Below, piece by piece: positions 4,474 to 51,659 of a stretch of 64,000 bases of DNA. Source of the DNA: an uncultured Actinomycetes bacterium (GTDB lineage Bacteria; Chloroflexota; Dormibacteria; Aeolococcales; Aeolococcaceae); NCBI GenBank assembly GCA_964508345.1, contig CAZDTK010000001.1:49248-113247 (forward strand), in the 5' to 3' direction. The notes beneath the pieces are model-generated. The model searched no databases and was not told the DNA's origin. It was given only the letters and a program-made list of their open reading frames with translations. Positions within the stretch are counted from its first letter, which is position 1. The number at the start of each line of letters is the position of its first letter. The position numbers and the translations under genes are program-made.

Positions 4474-6696
4474 ATGACCGAATCTCCACATGAGATAGCC
4501 GCCGTCGCCGCGAGTGAGGCCACGGCCGCGGTACCCGCGGACGTCGCGGGCCCGCCGCCGCCGCCGCGGGGCCGGCTCAAGGCATACCTGGGCGCCATGC
4601 CCGGGTCGGGCAAGACCTTCGCCATGCTCCGCGAGGGACGCGACCGCCGCGACGCCGGCGAGGACGTCGTGGTCGGCTTCATCGAGACCCACGGTAGGGC
4701 GCGCACCCAGGAGGCCGTCGGCACCCTGGAGGTCCTGCCCCGGCTGAGCGTCGACTACCGCGGCACCAAGCTCTCGGAGATGGACGTGGATGCGGTGCTG
4801 GCCCGCCATCCCCAGGTGGCGCTCATCGACGAGCTGGCCCACACCAACGCCCCCGGCGTCCGCCACCACAAGCGCTGGGAGGACATCGAGGACATCCGCG
4901 ACGCCGGCATCGACGTGATCACCACCATGAACATCCAGCACCTCGAGTCGGTGAAGGACGTGGTGGAGCGAATCACCGGGATCACCGTGCACGAGACGGT
5001 GCCCGACAGCGTCCTCGACCGCGCCGACGAGGTCCAGTTCATCGACATCACCCCCGAGGCCCTCCGTAAGCGGATGCGCCACGGCAACATCTACCCGCCC
5101 GACCGGGTGGACATGGCGCTGCGCAACTTCTTCCGGCCGGGCAATCTCGGTGCGCTCCGCGAGCTGGGTCTGAGGCTGGTCGCCGAGCGCGTCGAGGGCC
5201 AGCGCGGCGGCGTCCAGGCACCTCCCGAGGACGTCCTCGCCGCCGTCGGCGGGGGGGTGTCGGCGGAGGCCCTGATCCGGCGCGGCGTCCGCCAGGCTCG
5301 CCGCCGGCGCGGCTTCTGCACCGTGGTCCACGTCCGGACCGTGGAGGACCCCGTCCCCGGGCCCGGCAGCGACGAGGGCTGGCGCCGGCTGGCCGCCGAG
5401 CTGCAGACCTCGCTGGTGGAGCCGGAGGCCACCGACATCGCCGCGGCCCTGATCGCCGTCGCCCATGATCGGGGTAGCCGCCACGTGGTGATGGGCGAGC
5501 CGCACCCGCGCGGCTTCTTCGGCCGGATGCGCAAATCCATCGTCGATCGCGTCATCGAGGGGCTGCCCGACGCCGACGTCCACGTGATCTCGCGATACTC
5601 CGCCACTCCCTACGCCCCCCAGGACCGGCCCAACCCCGACTCCCTGCTCCGCGACCTGAGCATGACCCGGCCCCGTGGCGGGCTGCGCCTCTACATGAGC
5701 TACGCGCGGGGGGCGGGCGCGACCACGCAGATGCTCGACGAGGCCCGCCGCCGCGTGGCCCGCGGCACCGACGTCGTGGTCGGAGCGGTGAGCGGTGGAG
5801 GAGCGTCGCGGCTGGGCACCCTTCCCCTGCTCGGCGGGCACGCCTCACCGGCGGCGCGGGGTGTCCTCGACGTCGAGGCGCTGATGAGCCGCAACCCCGA
5901 CGTGGTGGCGATCGACGACCTCGCCGGCGTGACCACGACCGGACGGCTGGTGGCCCACGTGCTGCCCCGGATCCGCGCCGCCGGCATCAACGTCATTGGC
6001 ACCGTCCACCTCACCGACCTGCGCAGCACGGTGAGCGTGATGGGGCCGCTGCTCAACCGCCCCAAGGAGCGTCCCATCCTGGACGACTCGTCCGTCGACC
6101 CCGCCGACGAGATCGAGCTGATCGACGTCCCGCCGGCCGAGCTCGAGGAGCGGCTGCGCCAGGGCGAGATCATGCCGCCCGCCGAGGCCATCCAGGCTCT
6201 CCAGGGCGAGTTCCGCCCCGAGGTGCTCACCGCCCTGCGCGAGCTGGCGCTGCGCCGGGTCGCCGAGCACTGCGACCGGCGCCTCATCGAGTACATGAGC
6301 ACGGCTCGCATCAACGAGCCGTGGGAAGCCCGTCCCCGGGTGCTGGTCCTGGTCCCGCCTCAACCCGGACAGGAGGCCGTCATCCGCCGTGCCGCCGCCC
6401 ACGCGGTGCGCCGGGACGACGCCCTGACCGCCGTCTCGGTCCGCCGCCGGCCGCGCAGCGACGTCGAGAAACGCATCCTCGGTGGCTACGCCACCCTCAC
6501 CCATCAGCTCGGCGGTGAGTTCGTGACCATCGACGGGCGGGACGTCGCCGCCACGGTCGCCGCCTACGCCCGCGGCCACCGGATCACCGAGATCCTGGTG
6601 ATGCGGAGCATGAGGAACAGCAGCTCCCGGACGCTGCGCCAGCTGATCCGGCTGGTTGCCAACGTCGACGTTCACGTGGTCGCGGCGACCGACTGA
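4474..6696 (+). CDS. kdpD: Soluble KdpD-like sensor: (KdpD N-terminal domain + USP) x2, no TM or kinase domain
   Basis: YLGAMPGSGKTFAML, DELAHTN, KRWEDIE, NIQHLES, FFRPGNLGALREL; second degenerate copy from LRLYMSYARGAGATTQML; ATG 4474 chosen over TTG 4396. Confidence 0.85.
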   Translation: MTESPHEIAAVAASEATAAVPADVAGPPPPPRGRLKAYLGAMPGSGKTFAMLREGRDRRDAGEDVVVGFIETHGRARTQEAVGTLEVLPRLSVDYRGTKLSEMDVDAVLARHPQVALIDELAHTNAPGVRHHKRWEDIEDIRDAGIDVITTMNIQHLESVKDVVERITGITVHETVPDSVLDRADEVQFIDITPEALRKRMRHGNIYPPDRVDMALRNFFRPGNLGALRELGLRLVAERVEGQRGGVQAPPEDVLAAVGGGVSAEALIRRGVRQARRRRGFCTVVHVRTVEDPVPGPGSDEGWRRLAAELQTSLVEPEATDIAAALIAVAHDRGSRHVVMGEPHPRGFFGRMRKSIVDRVIEGLPDADVHVISRYSATPYAPQDRPNPDSLLRDLSMTRPRGGLRLYMSYARGAGATTQMLDEARRRVARGTDVVVGAVSGGGASRLGTLPLLGGHASPAARGVLDVEALMSRNPDVVAIDDLAGVTTTGRLVAHVLPRIRAAGINVIGTVHLTDLRSTVSVMGPLLNRPKERPILDDSSVDPADEIELIDVPPAELEERLRQGEIMPPAEAIQALQGEFRPEVLTALRELALRRVAEHCDRRLIEYMSTARINEPWEARPRVLVLVPPQPGQEAVIRRAAAHAVRRDDALTAVSVRRRPRSDVEKRILGGYATLTHQLGGEFVTIDGRDVAATVAAYARGHRITEILVMRSMRNSSSRTLRQLIRLVANVDVHVVAATD

Positions 6697-47044: not shown

Positions 47045-49294
47045 ATGATCGTCGCGGTCCTCTCGCCCATTGCGATGGTTGCGCTGGCCGGGACCGCATT
47101 CACCCTCAGTGGGCTGAGGTGGCGCCGCCTGGTCGCGCTGATGCGCCTCTCCCGCCGCCCCGACCCCCGTGGCGGCGACATCCGCGGACGCGCGCGCGCC
47201 TTCCTCGCCAACGTCCTGGGCCAGGGACGCCTGCTCCGCTGGCCCTATGCGGGCCTGCTCCACGCGCTCATCTTCTGGGGTTTCCTGGTGCTGCTCACCG
47301 CCATCGCCCAGGCGATCGTCGAAGCCCTGGTCGTCGGTGTGAGGCTGTACACCATCCCCGTCGTGGCGCCGGTGGTGGCCCATCTGCAGGACCTCTTCTG
47401 CGTCCTGGCGCTGACCGGGGTGCTGCTGGCGCTGGTCAACCGGCTGGTGGTCAGGCCGATCCGCTTCCGCGGCAGTCACACCGGCGACGCCCTGCTCATC
47501 CTGGGCTGGATCGCCGCGCTGCTCGTCTGCATGGAGCTGAACTACGCGACGCTGATCGCCGAGCACTCTCCCGAAGCGCTGGCCGCCGACCGGCCCTTCG
47601 CGGCAGCGCTCAGCCGCCTGTTCACGCCGCTCGGCAGTGACAGTCAGGCGCTGGTCGCATTCCACGGCGTGTTCTTCTGGGCGCACCTCTGCCTGGTCTT
47701 CGGGTTCCTCGTCTACCTCGGTTACAGCAAGCATCTGCACATCATCACCGCGCCCTTCAACGTCGTCCTCGCCGAACGCGGCCCCCGGGGCCGGCTCCGT
47801 CCCATCGACATCGACGCGGTGATGTCGGCCGCCGACGAGCGCGACCAGCACTTCGGCGCGGGCGCCCTCGAGCACTTCTCGTGGAAGGACGTGCTCGACC
47901 TCTACACCTGCACCGAATGCGGGCGCTGCCAGTCCCACTGCCCCGCCTACCTGACCGGGAAGGTGCTCTCGCCCAAGACCCTGATCACCGACCTGCGCGA
48001 CGGCTCCTACGAGCGGCTCAAGGGCGGCTACGCCGCCACCCAGCACAGCGCCCATGTCGTCCAGGGGGGCGACGCCGGCGGGAGCCCCGGCCCGGATGGT
48101 GGCGCGATGTGGGCCACCGGCGACGGCGATCGGGGAGCGGTCCATGGCCTCCCGGGCAGCTTCCAGCCCTCCTGGCTCAGCCCCGAGCGGGTGAGCGCGG
48201 CGGTGGCGGCGAACGGCGGCGAGCGCCCCCTGATCGGCGGCCTCATCGACGAGGAGACGCTCTGGGCCTGCACCACCTGCGGCGCGTGCATGGACCAGTG
48301 CCCGGTCTTTATCGAGCACGTCCCCAAGATCGTCGAGATGCGCCGCCATCTCGTGCTCGACGAGTCCCGGATGCCCCGCCAGGCCGAGACCGCGCTGCGC
48401 GCCATCGAGAACGTGGCCAACCCCTACGGGATCTCCCCGCAGAGCCGGGCCGACTGGGCGGCCGGGCTCGGGGTGCCGCTCATCTCCGAGCGGCCCGACG
48501 CCGAGTACCTCTACTGGGTCGGCTGCGCGGTCGCCTACGACGAGCGCGCGCGCAGCATCGCCACCGCCCTGGCTGCCATCCTCCAGGCCGCCGGTGTCGA
48601 CTTCGCCATCCTGGGCAACGAGGAGCGGTGCACCGGCGACCCGGCGCGGCGGATCGGCAACGAGTATCTCTTCCAGGAGCGGGCCCGCCAGAACATCGAG
48701 GTGCTGGGCGGGCACGGCATCCGCCGGATCGTCACCAGCTGTCCTCATTGTTTCAACACCATCGCCAACGAGTACCCCGACCTCGGCGGCAACTACGAGG
48801 TCATCCATCATTCCGTGCTCATCGAGCGGCTGATCACAGAGGGCAGGATCGTTCTGGAGAGGCCGATCGACGAGACGGTCACGTATCACGATTCCTGCTA
48901 CCTGGGGCGCTGGAACGGCGTCTTCGCGCCACCTCGCGACATCCTGGAGCGCATCCCCGGGATGCGCCTGGTGGAGATGAAGCGCAGCCGCCGCGAGGGG
49001 ATGTGCTGCGGCGCCGGTGGGGGCCGGATGTGGATGGAGGAGGGTCGACCGCGCGTCAACCACCGGCGTCTCGATCAGGCCATGGAGACCGAGGCGACCC
49101 GGGTGGCCACGGCCTGCCCCTTCTGCCTCACCATGTTCGACGAGGGGATCGCCGCGCGGCAGGCGGGAGACCGGGTCGCCGTGGACGACATCGCCGTCTA
49201 TGTGGCCCGTTCGATGCGGCTGCCCGCCACCGCCGACCCGACCACTGTGCGATCACCCACGGCCGGGTTGACACCCGGAGAGGGGGAAGGGTAG
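47045..49294 (+). CDS. Membrane Fe-S oxidoreductase (FadF/HdrD-like: TM domain + 2x 4Fe-4S + 2x CCG)
   Basis: YSKHLHI, CTECGRCQSHCP, CTTCGACMDQCP, YWVGC, CTGD, SCPHCF, HDSCY, CCGAGGG, ACPFC. Confidence 0.92.
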   Translation: MIVAVLSPIAMVALAGTAFTLSGLRWRRLVALMRLSRRPDPRGGDIRGRARAFLANVLGQGRLLRWPYAGLLHALIFWGFLVLLTAIAQAIVEALVVGVRLYTIPVVAPVVAHLQDLFCVLALTGVLLALVNRLVVRPIRFRGSHTGDALLILGWIAALLVCMELNYATLIAEHSPEALAADRPFAAALSRLFTPLGSDSQALVAFHGVFFWAHLCLVFGFLVYLGYSKHLHIITAPFNVVLAERGPRGRLRPIDIDAVMSAADERDQHFGAGALEHFSWKDVLDLYTCTECGRCQSHCPAYLTGKVLSPKTLITDLRDGSYERLKGGYAATQHSAHVVQGGDAGGSPGPDGGAMWATGDGDRGAVHGLPGSFQPSWLSPERVSAAVAANGGERPLIGGLIDEETLWACTTCGACMDQCPVFIEHVPKIVEMRRHLVLDESRMPRQAETALRAIENVANPYGISPQSRADWAAGLGVPLISERPDAEYLYWVGCAVAYDERARSIATALAAILQAAGVDFAILGNEERCTGDPARRIGNEYLFQERARQNIEVLGGHGIRRIVTSCPHCFNTIANEYPDLGGNYEVIHHSVLIERLITEGRIVLERPIDETVTYHDSCYLGRWNGVFAPPRDILERIPGMRLVEMKRSRREGMCCGAGGGRMWMEEGRPRVNHRRLDQAMETEATRVATACPFCLTMFDEGIAARQAGDRVAVDDIAVYVARSMRLPATADPTTVRSPTAGLTPGEGEG

Positions 49295-49395
49295 GCTCGG
49301 GGCGCGCGCCGCTGTGGCGCGTCTTTCAAGGTCCTCGTTCGTGCGCGCTCAGGGGGATTGGTGGCCGGTCCTGCGTCCTCGCAGTCTCGTCCGTG

Positions 49396-50478
49396 ATGCA
49401 CGTCCTCGCTGTCGCCGCGAACAAGGGTGGGGTGGGCAAGTCCACCCTTGCCTTCCAGGTCGCCGCCGAGATGGCCCGGCGCGGACTGCGGGTGCTGGCT
49501 GTCGACGCCGACAAGCAGGCCGACCTGACCCGCTATGCGCGCGGTCCGCGCCTGGCCGGACTGGGTCTCGACGCGGTGCTCGCCCACCCGCCCGCCTCCC
49601 TCGACCCCCGTCCGTACATCGGTCCGGTCGGCGACAACCTGGACCTGCTCGGCAGCTCGCCCCAGCTCGCCGACGTGGACCGGGTGCTGGCGGATGCCGA
49701 GGACGGGCCCTTCCTCCTCCTGCGAGCGCTCGGCGTGGTGGCGGAGGGCTACGACTGGACGGTGATCGACACCGGCCACTCCGAGCCGCTCATCGCCGCG
49801 GTGGTGGTGGCCGCCGACCAGCTCCTGCTCCCGACCACGGCGAGCGCCCCCGACGCCCGCCACGCGATGGACATGCTCCAAACCGCGATCCGGGTCCGGC
49901 AGCGGGTGGGTCTCGATACCGACGGTGTCGTGCGCCGTTCCCAGATCGCCATCTGGCGGCGCCAGCACAACGGGATCGCCGACGCCGAGGTCATCGCCTC
50001 TCTCCAGAAGCGGTTCGGCGACCTGGTCTGTCCGGTGATCATCCCCCACAGCTCGCGGATCTCCGAGGCCAACGACGGACGGCTCACCGTCCGCCAGCAC
50101 GCCGAAATGTACGGCACCGGCCGGGATCTGCCGCTCCACGCCGCGGTGCTGGCCTACGCGGCCATCACCGACCATGTGCTCGCGCGGGCCGGGATACCGG
50201 CCCGGCAGGCCTCCTCGGCCGGCGTGCTCGCCGAGATCGACTTCGACAGTCCCGACGTCGGCCAGGTGGCCCTGGCGATCCGCCGGGTCAAGTCGCGACG
50301 GGGCCTCGATGACGACCAGGTCGCCGAGGTGCTGGGCCGGTCGGTCGACTGGGTCCGGCGCACCCTCGCCTACGGCGCCCTGCACCCGGAGGGGGAGGAT
50401 CGCCTCACCATCCGGCGCGAGTCCCGCCGGGTGGCACGCGACCTGGTCGGGTCGGGTCCCTCGGGGTGGCGTCCCTGA
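49396..50478 (+). CDS. ParA/Soj-family ATPase with C-terminal ParB-like HTH
   Basis: NKGGVGKS deviant Walker A, DADKQADLT, VIDTG; C-terminal RRGLDDDQVAEVLGRSVDWVRRTL. Confidence 0.85.
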   Translation: MHVLAVAANKGGVGKSTLAFQVAAEMARRGLRVLAVDADKQADLTRYARGPRLAGLGLDAVLAHPPASLDPRPYIGPVGDNLDLLGSSPQLADVDRVLADAEDGPFLLLRALGVVAEGYDWTVIDTGHSEPLIAAVVVAADQLLLPTTASAPDARHAMDMLQTAIRVRQRVGLDTDGVVRRSQIAIWRRQHNGIADAEVIASLQKRFGDLVCPVIIPHSSRISEANDGRLTVRQHAEMYGTGRDLPLHAAVLAYAAITDHVLARAGIPARQASSAGVLAEIDFDSPDVGQVALAIRRVKSRRGLDDDQVAEVLGRSVDWVRRTLAYGALHPEGEDRLTIRRESRRVARDLVGSGPSGWRP

Positions 50479-51659
50479 ACGGGGCCGAGGCCCCTCGCTT
50501 CACCCGCGACCGGCTGACCTGGCTTGCCTACATCAGCATCTCCGGCTATGCCTTCTACCTCTATGCGCTGGGCCCGGTGCTCGCCTTCCTGCACAAGGAG
50601 CTGCACCTCTCCTACACGTTGACCAGCGTCCACTCCACCGTCTTCTCGGCCGGCGCCGTGATCACCGGTCTGACCTTCGATCTCACCACCCGGCGCTGGG
50701 GCCGCCGGCCCGTCTTCTGGATCTCCGCGGCCGCGACGGCGGCGGGCGCCGTTCTCTTCTTCGCCGGCCACCAGGTCGCGGTCACGCTCCCCGCCGCATT
50801 CGTCCTCGGTGTCGGCTGCACCTACCTGGGTGCGAGCTGCTCGGTGGCGCTCGCCGACCGCCATGGGGTCCAGCGTGACCGGGCCCTGGTCGAGGCCAAC
50901 GTCGGCGCCAGCGGAACCGGGGTGGCGGTGCCCGCGCTGCTCGGTCTGCTCGCCGGCACCGTCCTGGGGTGGCGCTCGGCCCTGCTCCTGCCGGCGCTGA
51001 CCCTGGGAGCGCTGTACGTCGTGCTGGGGCGGGTCAAATTCCCCGCGCCGGCCCTTCCTCTCGCCGCCGCGCGCCACCGTCTGCCCCGGTCCTTCTGGGG
51101 GCCCTGCCTGCTGGTGGCGCTCGCCGTCGCCATCGAGTTCACCGTCATCTTCTACGGCGTCCCCCTGCTGGGGATCAGCGTCGGCCTCTCGACGGCCAGC
51201 TCCGCGGCCGTGCTCAGCCTCTTCATCGCGGGCGAGCTGGGCGGGCGGCTGGCGGGCTCGTGGGTGACCCGGCGGCCGGGGCGGGCGGTGCCGCTGATCG
51301 GCGTGGCCCTGGGGGTCGCCCTGGCCGGCTTCCTGACCCTCTGGCTCGGCCGGGACCTGGCCATCGCCGCCGTGGCCATCTTCGTCACCGGTCTCGGGGT
51401 GGGCAACCTCTACCCGCTCAGCCTGGCCATGGCGCTCGGTGCCGGCGGCGGCAGCACCGACCGGGCGATGGCCAGGACCCAGGTCGCGGTCGGGCTGGCG
51501 ATCGGCACCGCCCCGCTCCTGCTCGGCGTGCTCTCCGACCGGGTGGGGGTGCTCCGGGCGCTGGCCGTCGAGCCCTGCCTCATCGTGATCGCCGCCCTGG
51601 TGCTGCTGGTGGTGGGGCGCTCTCGGCCCCGCGAGGCCGTGGCCGCCCAGGCGGCGTGA
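50466..51659 (+). CDS. MFS transporter
   Basis: About 12 hydrophobic segments; RRWGRRP motif A variant; GVLSDRVG. Confidence 0.88.
   Translation: MASLNGAEAPRFTRDRLTWLAYISISGYAFYLYALGPVLAFLHKELHLSYTLTSVHSTVFSAGAVITGLTFDLTTRRWGRRPVFWISAAATAAGAVLFFAGHQVAVTLPAAFVLGVGCTYLGASCSVALADRHGVQRDRALVEANVGASGTGVAVPALLGLLAGTVLGWRSALLLPALTLGALYVVLGRVKFPAPALPLAAARHRLPRSFWGPCLLVALAVAIEFTVIFYGVPLLGISVGLSTASSAAVLSLFIAGELGGRLAGSWVTRRPGRAVPLIGVALGVALAGFLTLWLGRDLAIAAVAIFVTGLGVGNLYPLSLAMALGAGGGSTDRAMARTQVAVGLAIGTAPLLLGVLSDRVGVLRALAVEPCLIVIAALVLLVVGRSRPREAVAAQAA

Follow-up and report, generated by a model that had tools for sequence, protein, structure and literature searches.

The ParABS partition system consists of two cooperating nucleotide switches, the ParA ATPase and the ParB CTPase clamp. 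A 64,000-nucleotide stretch of contig CAZDTK010000001.1 (assembly GCA_964508345.1; hereafter the window, G+C ~72% overall) from an uncultured bacterium of the Dormibacteria holds a gene whose 360-residue product, P0001, joins a ParA ATPase to a ParB-like helix-turn-helix (HTH) at the C-terminus. The locus raises the questions of how a ParA acquired the DNA reader of a ParB and what such a protein could do alone. Comparison with its relatives indicates that P0001 is a fusion confined to one clade and kept by selection, in which ParA carries the DNA-binding domain of a former ParB partner. Taken as a whole, a fusion born by deletion and acting as an ATP-gated, site-specific DNA binder or tether is the account we favor. 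Our confidence in the origin is very high, and in the mechanism much lower.

The ATPase half and the C-terminal tail

The gene and its parts are as follows.

49396..50478, + strand: ParA-ParB (DNA-binding domain) fusion gene P0001, 360 aa, stop-free frame on translation
49396..50211, + strand: ParA ATPase domain (type Ib, Soj-like), residues 1-~272; from Pfam, NCBIfam, phmmer, AlphaFold2 (AF2) and Foldseek
50185..50238, + strand: fusion junction and linker, residues ~264-281; from alignments, a ratio of nonsynonymous to synonymous substitution rates (dN/dS) of 0.75 and low predicted local distance difference test (pLDDT) scores
50221..50445, + strand: ParB-derived DNA-binding domain, residues ~276-350; from BLASTP, hhalign, profile search and AF2

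The original prediction, made from this DNA alone, described an intact KGGVGKS ParA domain, and that description held. Residues 1-~270 match AAA_31 (E 3e-21) as well as the CbiA, MipZ and ParA models of Pfam. P0001 also matches the NCBIfam model 'ParA family partition ATPase', under that model's equivalog cut-off, and Soj of Thermus thermophilus (phmmer E 4e-14). AF2 assigned pLDDT >90 across residues 1-260, and the top Foldseek matches were the ParA/Soj structures 8ray, 2bek and 1wcv (template modelling score 0.83-0.87, target-normalised; 0.85 for T. thermophilus Soj). The nucleotide motifs are a deviant Walker A (K10-GGVG-K15-S), Walker A' (D37/D39) and Walker B (D125). Across a 96-sequence alignment G11-K15, D37, D39, Q41 and D125 are invariant and K10 nearly so. 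R221 (SSR221-ISEAN) is also invariant and aligns with the arginine of NVRLAEA in T. thermophilus Soj (RNVRLAEA). We take the equivalent arginine (Soj R189 region, NVRLxEA) to mediate non-specific DNA binding, a role of the Soj arginine that Hester and Lutkenhaus reportedly described in 2007.

The tail has escaped annotation. Public records call the fusion proteins ParA, 'chromosome partitioning protein' or 'BcsQ' and give the tail no domain. Pfam returned only sub-threshold matches for the tail alone (HTH_23, E 5e-4; HTH_ParB, E 0.26). Direct comparison with ParB proteins gave stronger matches. P0001 matched a short chromosomal ParB, P0124, with a BLASTP E of 2e-17, and P0124 is 63% identical to P0039 across 62 residues. 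The tail is 43% identical to residues 127-179 of P0122, a ParB from a conjugative element (BLASTP E 9e-11). The tail profile aligned with P0122 residues 116-179 at an hhalign probability of 97.5% (E 7e-12). This alignment includes the ENIQRE box (ENIQREDL), whose relic in P0001 reads LAEIDFDSPD. In a multiple alignment with canonical ParBs the part retained by the fusion begins at the ENIQRE box, includes the HTH and ends in the region of the GHAR helix; nothing of ParB outside it is kept.

The predicted structure has the corresponding form. AF2 placed three helices in the tail (288-302, 306-313 and 317-328) at pLDDT 82-88, followed by a disordered end; residues 271-284 have pLDDT <50. With the tail-only model, Foldseek listed Caulobacter ParB DNA-binding-domain structures first (6t1f, 6s6h; probability 0.99). 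This result was taken as consistency only because the E-values (0.25-0.8) are non-significant. The recognition helix of the fusion HTH is SVDWVRRTLAYG, and the consensus of the tail among orthologs is PD..VA.A.RR.K.RRGLDDDQLAEVLGR.V.WVR.TLAFGARHPEGEDRLT.RP. The tail is the best-conserved region of the fusion proteins after the ATPase core. Within it lie the invariant motif PEGEDRLT-R and a run of basic residues that corresponds, by alignment, to the GHAR helix of canonical ParB.

Chance likeness of the tail to an HTH was considered and rejected on the homology to ParB found by BLASTP, hhalign and profile search. These matches argue firmly for homology between the tail and the DNA-binding domain of ParB. 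The predicted C-terminal ParB/Spo0J-type HTH is borne out by hhalign, by the BLASTP match to P0124 and by the three AF2 helices. The check for an HTH in the tail was answered in part; hhalign and ParB homology found it, and Pfam and Foldseek stayed below significance.

The remainder of ParB is missing. P0001 has no Pfam match to ParB_N, the CTPase domain with the GERRxR arginine patch. It stops ~30 residues past the HTH without a ParB_C dimerisation domain. No remnants of the ParB N-terminus or C-terminus were found by tblastn in the window or in 20 fused loci.

The rarity of this architecture was examined by an exhaustive HMMER profile search with the tail against 1.84 billion representative proteins (E <= 0.001). 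The 12 matches were the one representative of this family at 50% identity, 3 fragments, 1 short-ParB fragment, 5 proteins with ParB_N and HTH_ParB by Pfam, and 2 generic HTH proteins. In the ParB_N and HTH_ParB proteins the profile falls at the expected position of the HTH. No other ParA with a ParB-type C-terminal HTH was found among these representatives, so that the architecture search proposed with the original prediction returned this family only. A word-based search with residues 276-360 likewise returned this family only. The literature collection searched contained no paper describing a ParA-ParB fusion, and a preprint on ParB-CTPase domain fusions makes no mention of ParA fusions.

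Type Ia ParAs (P1 ParA, F SopA) resemble the fusion in that the ATPase is covalently joined to its own HTH. As the original prediction pointed out, the type Ia HTH is N-terminal and not C-terminal; it binds the par operator (PMC9178275). Type Ia proteins carry a ~100-aa N-terminal winged-HTH extension that is not of the ParB kind and require a separate ParB, whereas the HTH of the fusion is C-terminal, ParB-derived and attached to a type Ib ATPase. P0001 lacks an N-terminal HTH, as its Walker A motif begins at residue 10. NCBIfam SopA/RepA matches to P0001 are weak, cover the ATPase core only and lie far under the cut-offs. Type Ia identity was rejected because the HTH of P0001 lies at the C-terminal end and derives from ParB, and so has a different origin. 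The two architectures are convergent, not related.

Origin by deletion and maintenance in the Dormibacteria

An unfused version of the locus (L028) was found in a sister lineage of the Dormibacteria, in which parA (P0049, 274 aa) is followed by a 10-nt gap, parB (P0124, 206 aa) and a gene for a major facilitator superfamily (MFS) transporter.

L028 5178-5798: short parB P0124, 206 aa, with ParB_N and HTH

P0124 consists of a ParB_N domain with AAGERRWLA, then ...SESIQREELSRADVAAAFQKIKRQRRLSDEQLAQGYGKTVEWVRQTLAFGSRAPEGEDRLTIRPVSRR..., in which the HTH and PEGEDRLTIRP tail are the same as in the fusion. It has an N-terminal basic peptide (YRRRRRYGRL) and already lacks the C-terminal dimerisation domain. 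Short chromosomal ParBs of this type are rare in public data, where two close clusters were found. The L028 locus shares with the fused loci its upstream neighbors (a SpoIIIAA/R3H ATPase gene, tmk and a minus-strand gene), its promoter and an orthologous MFS gene, whose product is 59% identical to that of the window. It differs in having two genes, in retaining the ParB N-terminal peptide and CTPase domain (GERRW) and in lacking the short upstream open reading frame (ORF) described below.

The ParA relatives of 274 aa (~57-68% identity to P0001) stop exactly where the tail starts. At the junction ParA ends in a stretch that aligns with ...LARVPAEQALAV* of P0049, and the protein continues as ParB residues ~105-122. 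When a maximum-likelihood tree was built from the ATPase parts, all 19 fused proteins grouped in one clade (support 100/99). P0049 is sister to this clade (99/96), and nine ParAs of conjugative elements come next (84/95). At the level of sequence these comparisons show that the fusion derives from a chromosomal parA-parB pair and arose once, in Candidatus Dormibacteria. By the alignments, a single in-frame deletion removed the stop codon of parA together with the spacer and ~105-115 codons from the 5' end of parB. The lost part of parB corresponds to the presumed ParA-activating N-terminal peptide and the whole CTPase domain (ParB_N, GERRW). As reconstructed, the product is an intact type Ib ParA, a flexible linker of ~15 residues and a ParB DNA-binding domain, and the ancestral short ParB had lacked the C-terminal dimerisation domain before fusion.

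A frameshifted parB remnant, the outcome that the original prediction gave as its own refutation, describes the tail in part, for the tail is a remnant of parB. It is also in frame, of single origin, present in at least 16 species and under purifying selection. Approximately 45 full-length orthologs were found (356-369 aa, 62-88% identity), and those with named sources come from Candidatus Dormibacteria metagenome-assembled genomes (MAGs). P0001 itself occurs letter-identical on 18 metagenomic contigs, the longest of 567 kb. To count species, the two best-conserved peptides of the tail were searched in a set holding a single genome for each GTDB species. The fusion is present in at least 16 of these species-level genomes, all of them Dormibacterota-type MAGs of peat, bog and fen; some bear loose NCBI labels such as 'uncultured Chloroflexia' or 'Binatia'.

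Selection was estimated by the Nei-Gojobori method from 15 orthologs, with these median dN/dS values.

ParA part: 0.264
Linker: 0.75
HTH, residues 282-337: 0.225
Last 23 residues: 0.59

For the HTH, dN/dS was <1 in 7/7 phylogenetically separate pairs. These ratios indicate that both halves of the fusion are under purifying selection. Because the frame is intact, the origin single, the distribution wide and the selection purifying, the gene is read as a functional fusion and not as decay. A pseudogene or frameshifted remnant was rejected on the intact frame of the ~45 orthologs and the HTH dN/dS of 0.23. Two copies are split by frameshift (L024 5189-6264 and L027 3582-4516), and both shifts are likely assembly artefacts. 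The L024 shifts are read as technical because the assembly is of nanopore type and the sequence is conserved in each frame, that of L027 because a run of N lies at the shift. Contigs of two wetland metatranscriptomes are identical to 49914-50078 and 50089-50296, and the second crosses the junction. They are weak evidence that the fusion gene is transcribed.

The outgroup of the tree lies on mobile elements. The nearest outgroup ParAs belong to modules of a small ORF, parA and parB beside TrwC relaxases, type IV secretion system (T4SS) coupling proteins and integrases. One of the 274-aa relatives, P0050, comes from a conjugative or integrative element that also carries a TrwC relaxase and two integrases; the stop codon of its gene overlaps the start of the gene for P0122 (330 aa; ParB_N 32-124, HTH_ParB 126-208). 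In the modules of L004, L032 and L033 ParA is 274 aa long and ~60% identical to that of the fusion, the ParB HTH is 43% identical, and the small ORF overlaps the parA start by TGATG. The modules differ from the fused locus in their mobile context, their full-length ParB (315-363 aa), the repeat arrays that precede them and the lack of an MFS gene.

Upstream of the par modules of two different elements the arrays consist of CATGGGATC x4-5 followed by convergent GATCCCATG x3-4 (L004 6990-7665, L032 4975-5475). The CATGGGATC/GATCCCATG array is a candidate centromere for this ParB lineage. The recognition helices are near-identical, reading KS[VI][ED]WVRQVLAF in the element ParBs and R[SP]V[DE]WVR[QHR]TLA[FY] in the fusion. 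The first ORF of the modules encodes 55-69 aa, and its stop overlaps the parA start (L004 7807-8001, encoding P0123; L032 5801-6001; L033 1087-1254). Its product, RVRVRRETIATL followed by helices, looks ribbon-helix-helix-like; the small proteins have no Pfam match. In outline, the small-ORF/parA/parB layout recalls the ParC-ParA-ParB of the Myxococcus plasmid pMF1 (PMC7843461).

Proposed function, partners and binding sites

The fusion shares the Soj fold and all nucleotide motifs with type Ib ParA/Soj in its ATPase half. With the ParB/Spo0J of these systems it shares the DNA-binding domain from the ENIQRE box through the HTH, and its direct ancestor is a parA-parB operon. It differs from ParABS in being one polypeptide and in lacking the ParB_N CTPase, the ParA-activating peptide and the C-terminal dimerisation domain.

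ParA-type ATPases dimerise upon ATP binding. In the mechanism we propose, ATP binding would bring the ParA halves into the usual sandwich dimer and so pair two ParB-type HTH modules. Site-specific DNA binding would thereby be gated by ATP, and the surface of the ParA dimer could still hold non-specific nucleoid DNA. Dimerisation driven by ATP would stand in for two features of ParB that were lost, its C-terminal dimer and the CTP-gated engagement of its N-domain. The protein would then be a nucleotide-switched binder of a DNA site, or a tether. It cannot form a sliding CTP clamp, because the ParB_N CTPase domain needed for clamp loading is missing. ATP hydrolysis would probably be slow in the absence of a stimulus, which might come from the basic tail (PEGEDRLTIRP..RR; conserved and disordered) or from another factor. 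An ATP-gated, site-specific DNA binder or tether is the most likely function. The nearest functional counterpart would be type Ia ParA, but the fusion was built independently, with a ParB HTH placed at the opposite end of the protein.

Partners were sought around the gene. The original prediction had seen no parB, CTPase domain or parS nearby, and tblastn of the 64-kb window agreed, detecting neither a second ParA nor any ParB. A separate ParB gene that could supply an ATPase-stimulating partner was found neither in the window nor in the 20 orthologous loci. Two canonical loci (L029, L030), of the layouts jag-gidAB-parAB and parAB-gyrB, were among the ParB matches, and neither could be linked to an organism.

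Several observations weigh against an ATP-gated binder or tether. No canonical parS was found in the window with <=3 mismatches allowed, and no conserved palindrome or common non-coding k-mer was found in or around 16 loci. The 9-mer repeat of the elements, GATCCCATG, was found neither in the window nor in any of the chromosomal loci retrieved. A hairpin in the leader of the gene is an unlikely operator because its sequence varies while the HTH does not. The AF2 models are of the monomer only, and the geometry of the dimer and the reach of the HTH lie outside them. ATP turnover, and hence dynamic positioning, is uncertain because the ATPase-activating peptide of ParB was deleted. Because the overlap with the MFS gene is conserved, the fusion may have a role that the proposed model does not cover. 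The metatranscriptome signal is thin (depth 1-4), and carry-over of DNA is possible.

The fusion might do more than bind or tether. In a partition machine made of one polypeptide, the HTH would sit on a centromere elsewhere in the chromosome and the ATP-bound ParA dimer on the nucleoid. The basic tail would stimulate hydrolysis in cis or in trans, dimerisation by ATP would replace the CTP clamp, and the protein would possibly be the sole par system of these Dormibacteria. We regard so complete a machine as very improbable.

The kinship with mobile elements raises another possibility, that the fusion is an incompatibility or exclusion factor. It would bind the centromere arrays of incoming elements and mis-tether or titrate them, destabilising the elements. 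There is a precedent in ParI, an orphan ParA on a genomic island of Pseudomonas putida that acts as an incompatibility factor and destabilises IncP-7 plasmids (PMC9178275). Like the fusion, ParI is chromosomal, has no partner and comes from the partition system of a mobile element; it can disturb related replicons. ParI has no ParB-derived DNA-binding domain, however, and interference by the Dormibacteria fusion is hypothetical. The nearest outgroup ParAs lie in mobile modules, two different elements have the identical CATGGGATC/GATCCCATG array design 5' of the par module, and the recognition helix is almost shared with the element ParBs, all of which suits exclusion. The lack of the repeat from the window and the chromosomal loci could also mean that the target is non-chromosomal. 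This absence means little because ~400 kb of chromosomal DNA would carry only ~2 chance copies of a 9-mer. The array itself is a candidate centromere, and the small ribbon-helix-helix-like protein, not ParB, may be its binder. The elements may have hosts outside the Dormibacteria. PADLOC found no defence-system match, returning a single P-loop match (E 1e-5). The fixed position and slow evolution of the gene across the clade would also be unusual among defence genes. On this evidence exclusion is unlikely.

Leader, transporter gene and wider meaning

The remaining features of the locus surround the fusion gene.

49268..49297, + strand: putative promoter of the fusion gene, TTGACA at 49268-49273, 18-nt spacer, TAGGCT at 49292-49297; from conservation only
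49302..49323, + strand: GC-rich hairpin where the transcript is predicted to begin; stem present in 15/15 loci, by eye
49361..49396, + strand: short upstream ORF (uORF) encoding MAGPASSQSRP; GTG start, GGGGGA box resembling a Shine-Dalgarno (SD) sequence (element 49352-49396), TGA overlapping the ParA ATG (TGATG)
50466..51659, + strand: MFS transporter gene; GTG start, 13-nt overlap with the end of the fusion gene

The putative promoter follows the pattern TTGACA-N18-TAG(T/G)(G/C)T. Among 15 orthologous loci and unfused L028 the TTGACA never varies, and TAGTGT/TAGGCT is conserved as well. The -10 element of the window overlaps the stop codon of the upstream gene. A scan with the sigma-70 consensus did not call this promoter, whose -10 fits the consensus at 3/6 positions. 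The hairpin past the -10 keeps the position of its stem across the 15 loci while its sequence differs between lineages. The hairpin could act as a 5' stabiliser of the mRNA; no Rfam family matches it or the leader.

Each fused locus (the window and L012-L026) has an SD-like box and, behind it, a short ORF that overlaps the ParA start with its stop codon, despite indels. The uORF starts with GTG, TTG or ATG. It has 11 codons and overlaps directly by TGATG in about half of the loci (the window, L014, L012, L015, L020, L019 and L018). In L023 and L026 it is longer (18-21 codons), and the overlap in L023 is ATGA. In L025 the ATG near the SD is in frame with ParA, and a separate 10-codon uORF with a GTG start also ends in TGATG. 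The first uORF of L013, L016, L017, L021 and L022 stops at a duplicate of the ATG lying 14-17 nt upstream. The TGATG overlap with the ParA start is made there by a second mini-ORF, 4-5 codons long (MRVLA, MRVIL, MRVL). Unfused L028 has no uORF, and its SD immediately precedes the start (GTGATG). The arrangement suggests that the uORF is translationally coupled to the fusion gene.

The mini-uORF is created by a tandem duplication of 14-17 nt of the first bases of the gene, seen in six loci (L013, at 5236-5256, L010, L016, L017, L021 and L022). The duplication is 17 nt long (ATGCGGGTNCTCGCCTG) in L013, L016/L010 and L017 and 14 nt long in L021 and L022, and it occurs in two separate sub-clades.

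Downstream, the fusion stop overlaps the MFS start in every lineage compared, including L007, L009 and L010. The order of enoyl-CoA hydratase, membrane Fe-S/CCG oxidoreductase, fusion gene and MFS gene is kept down to 63% identity, and the fusion has remained at a single chromosomal site. The L028 gene order indicates that the MFS gene adjoined parB before the fusion arose. So conservative a linkage of a par-derived gene to a transporter gene has no obvious explanation. The product of the gene 5' of the fusion (47045-49294) is a membrane protein of 749 aa (HdrD/GlpC/TfrB-like) that contains CCG domains and two 4Fe-4S motifs; this gene is preceded by the enoyl-CoA hydratase gene. This pair is probably not tied functionally to the par gene because it is missing from the L028 version of the locus.

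The fusion might instead be a local transcription regulator of its own operon, including the MFS gene, and its repression would be tuned by the ATP/ADP state. Autorepression through the HTH is known from type Ia ParAs (PMC9178275). The gene has its own conserved promoter, the overlap with the MFS gene is found in every lineage, the MFS gene already stood behind parB before fusion, and the coupling to the uORF suggests tightly limited expression. Inverted repeats near the fusion gene and in L028, searched as possible operators, gave no candidate. The promoter and leader of 15 loci contain no conserved dyad or repeat, and the lone symmetric element varies while the HTH is nearly invariant. A full ParA domain, catalytically intact and under selection, also exceeds the needs of a repressor. 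Regulation of its own operon as the main role is distinctly unlikely.

The same neighborhood would suit an orphan ParA that positions cargo, the use that the original prediction thought possible for a one-component positioning or nucleoid-tethering ATPase. Such a protein would spread a non-DNA cargo, for example a membrane complex with the MFS protein, over the nucleoid, and its ParB part would serve as an extra nucleoid anchor or as a protein adaptor. Chemoreceptor arrays and carboxysomes are among the cargoes that orphan ParAs position (PMC9178275). According to its title, a bioRxiv preprint (10.1101/2025.07.02.662783) reports an effect of the ParA-like protein PldP on TatA dynamics. The MFS gene is a conserved neighbor, and the invariant yet disordered PEGEDRLT-R resembles a short linear interaction motif. 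That adjacency is older than the fusion, however, and may be inherited gene order only. Neither the 64-kb window nor the orthologous loci yielded a cargo or a partner with an activating peptide, and the HTH recognition helix is kept as in sequence-specific ParBs. We consider cargo positioning quite improbable, and an ATP-gated DNA binder or tether the better reading of the fusion.

The finding exposes a gap in annotation, as records name these proteins plain ParA and no domain model detects the tail above threshold. It is relevant to the mechanism of ParABS and to the domestication of mobile-element partition genes. The fusion amounts to a construct made by evolution: it has lost the CTP switch and the peptide that activates ParA, its DNA reader is tied to ParA, and selection has kept it across the clade. 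Together with the two-gene state of its sister and its cousins on mobile elements it forms a comparative series on what the CTPase domain contributes. The series asks whether dimerisation driven by ATP can substitute for that domain. It also bears on whether chromosomal orphan ParAs derived from mobile elements serve in regulation, tethering or plasmid exclusion.

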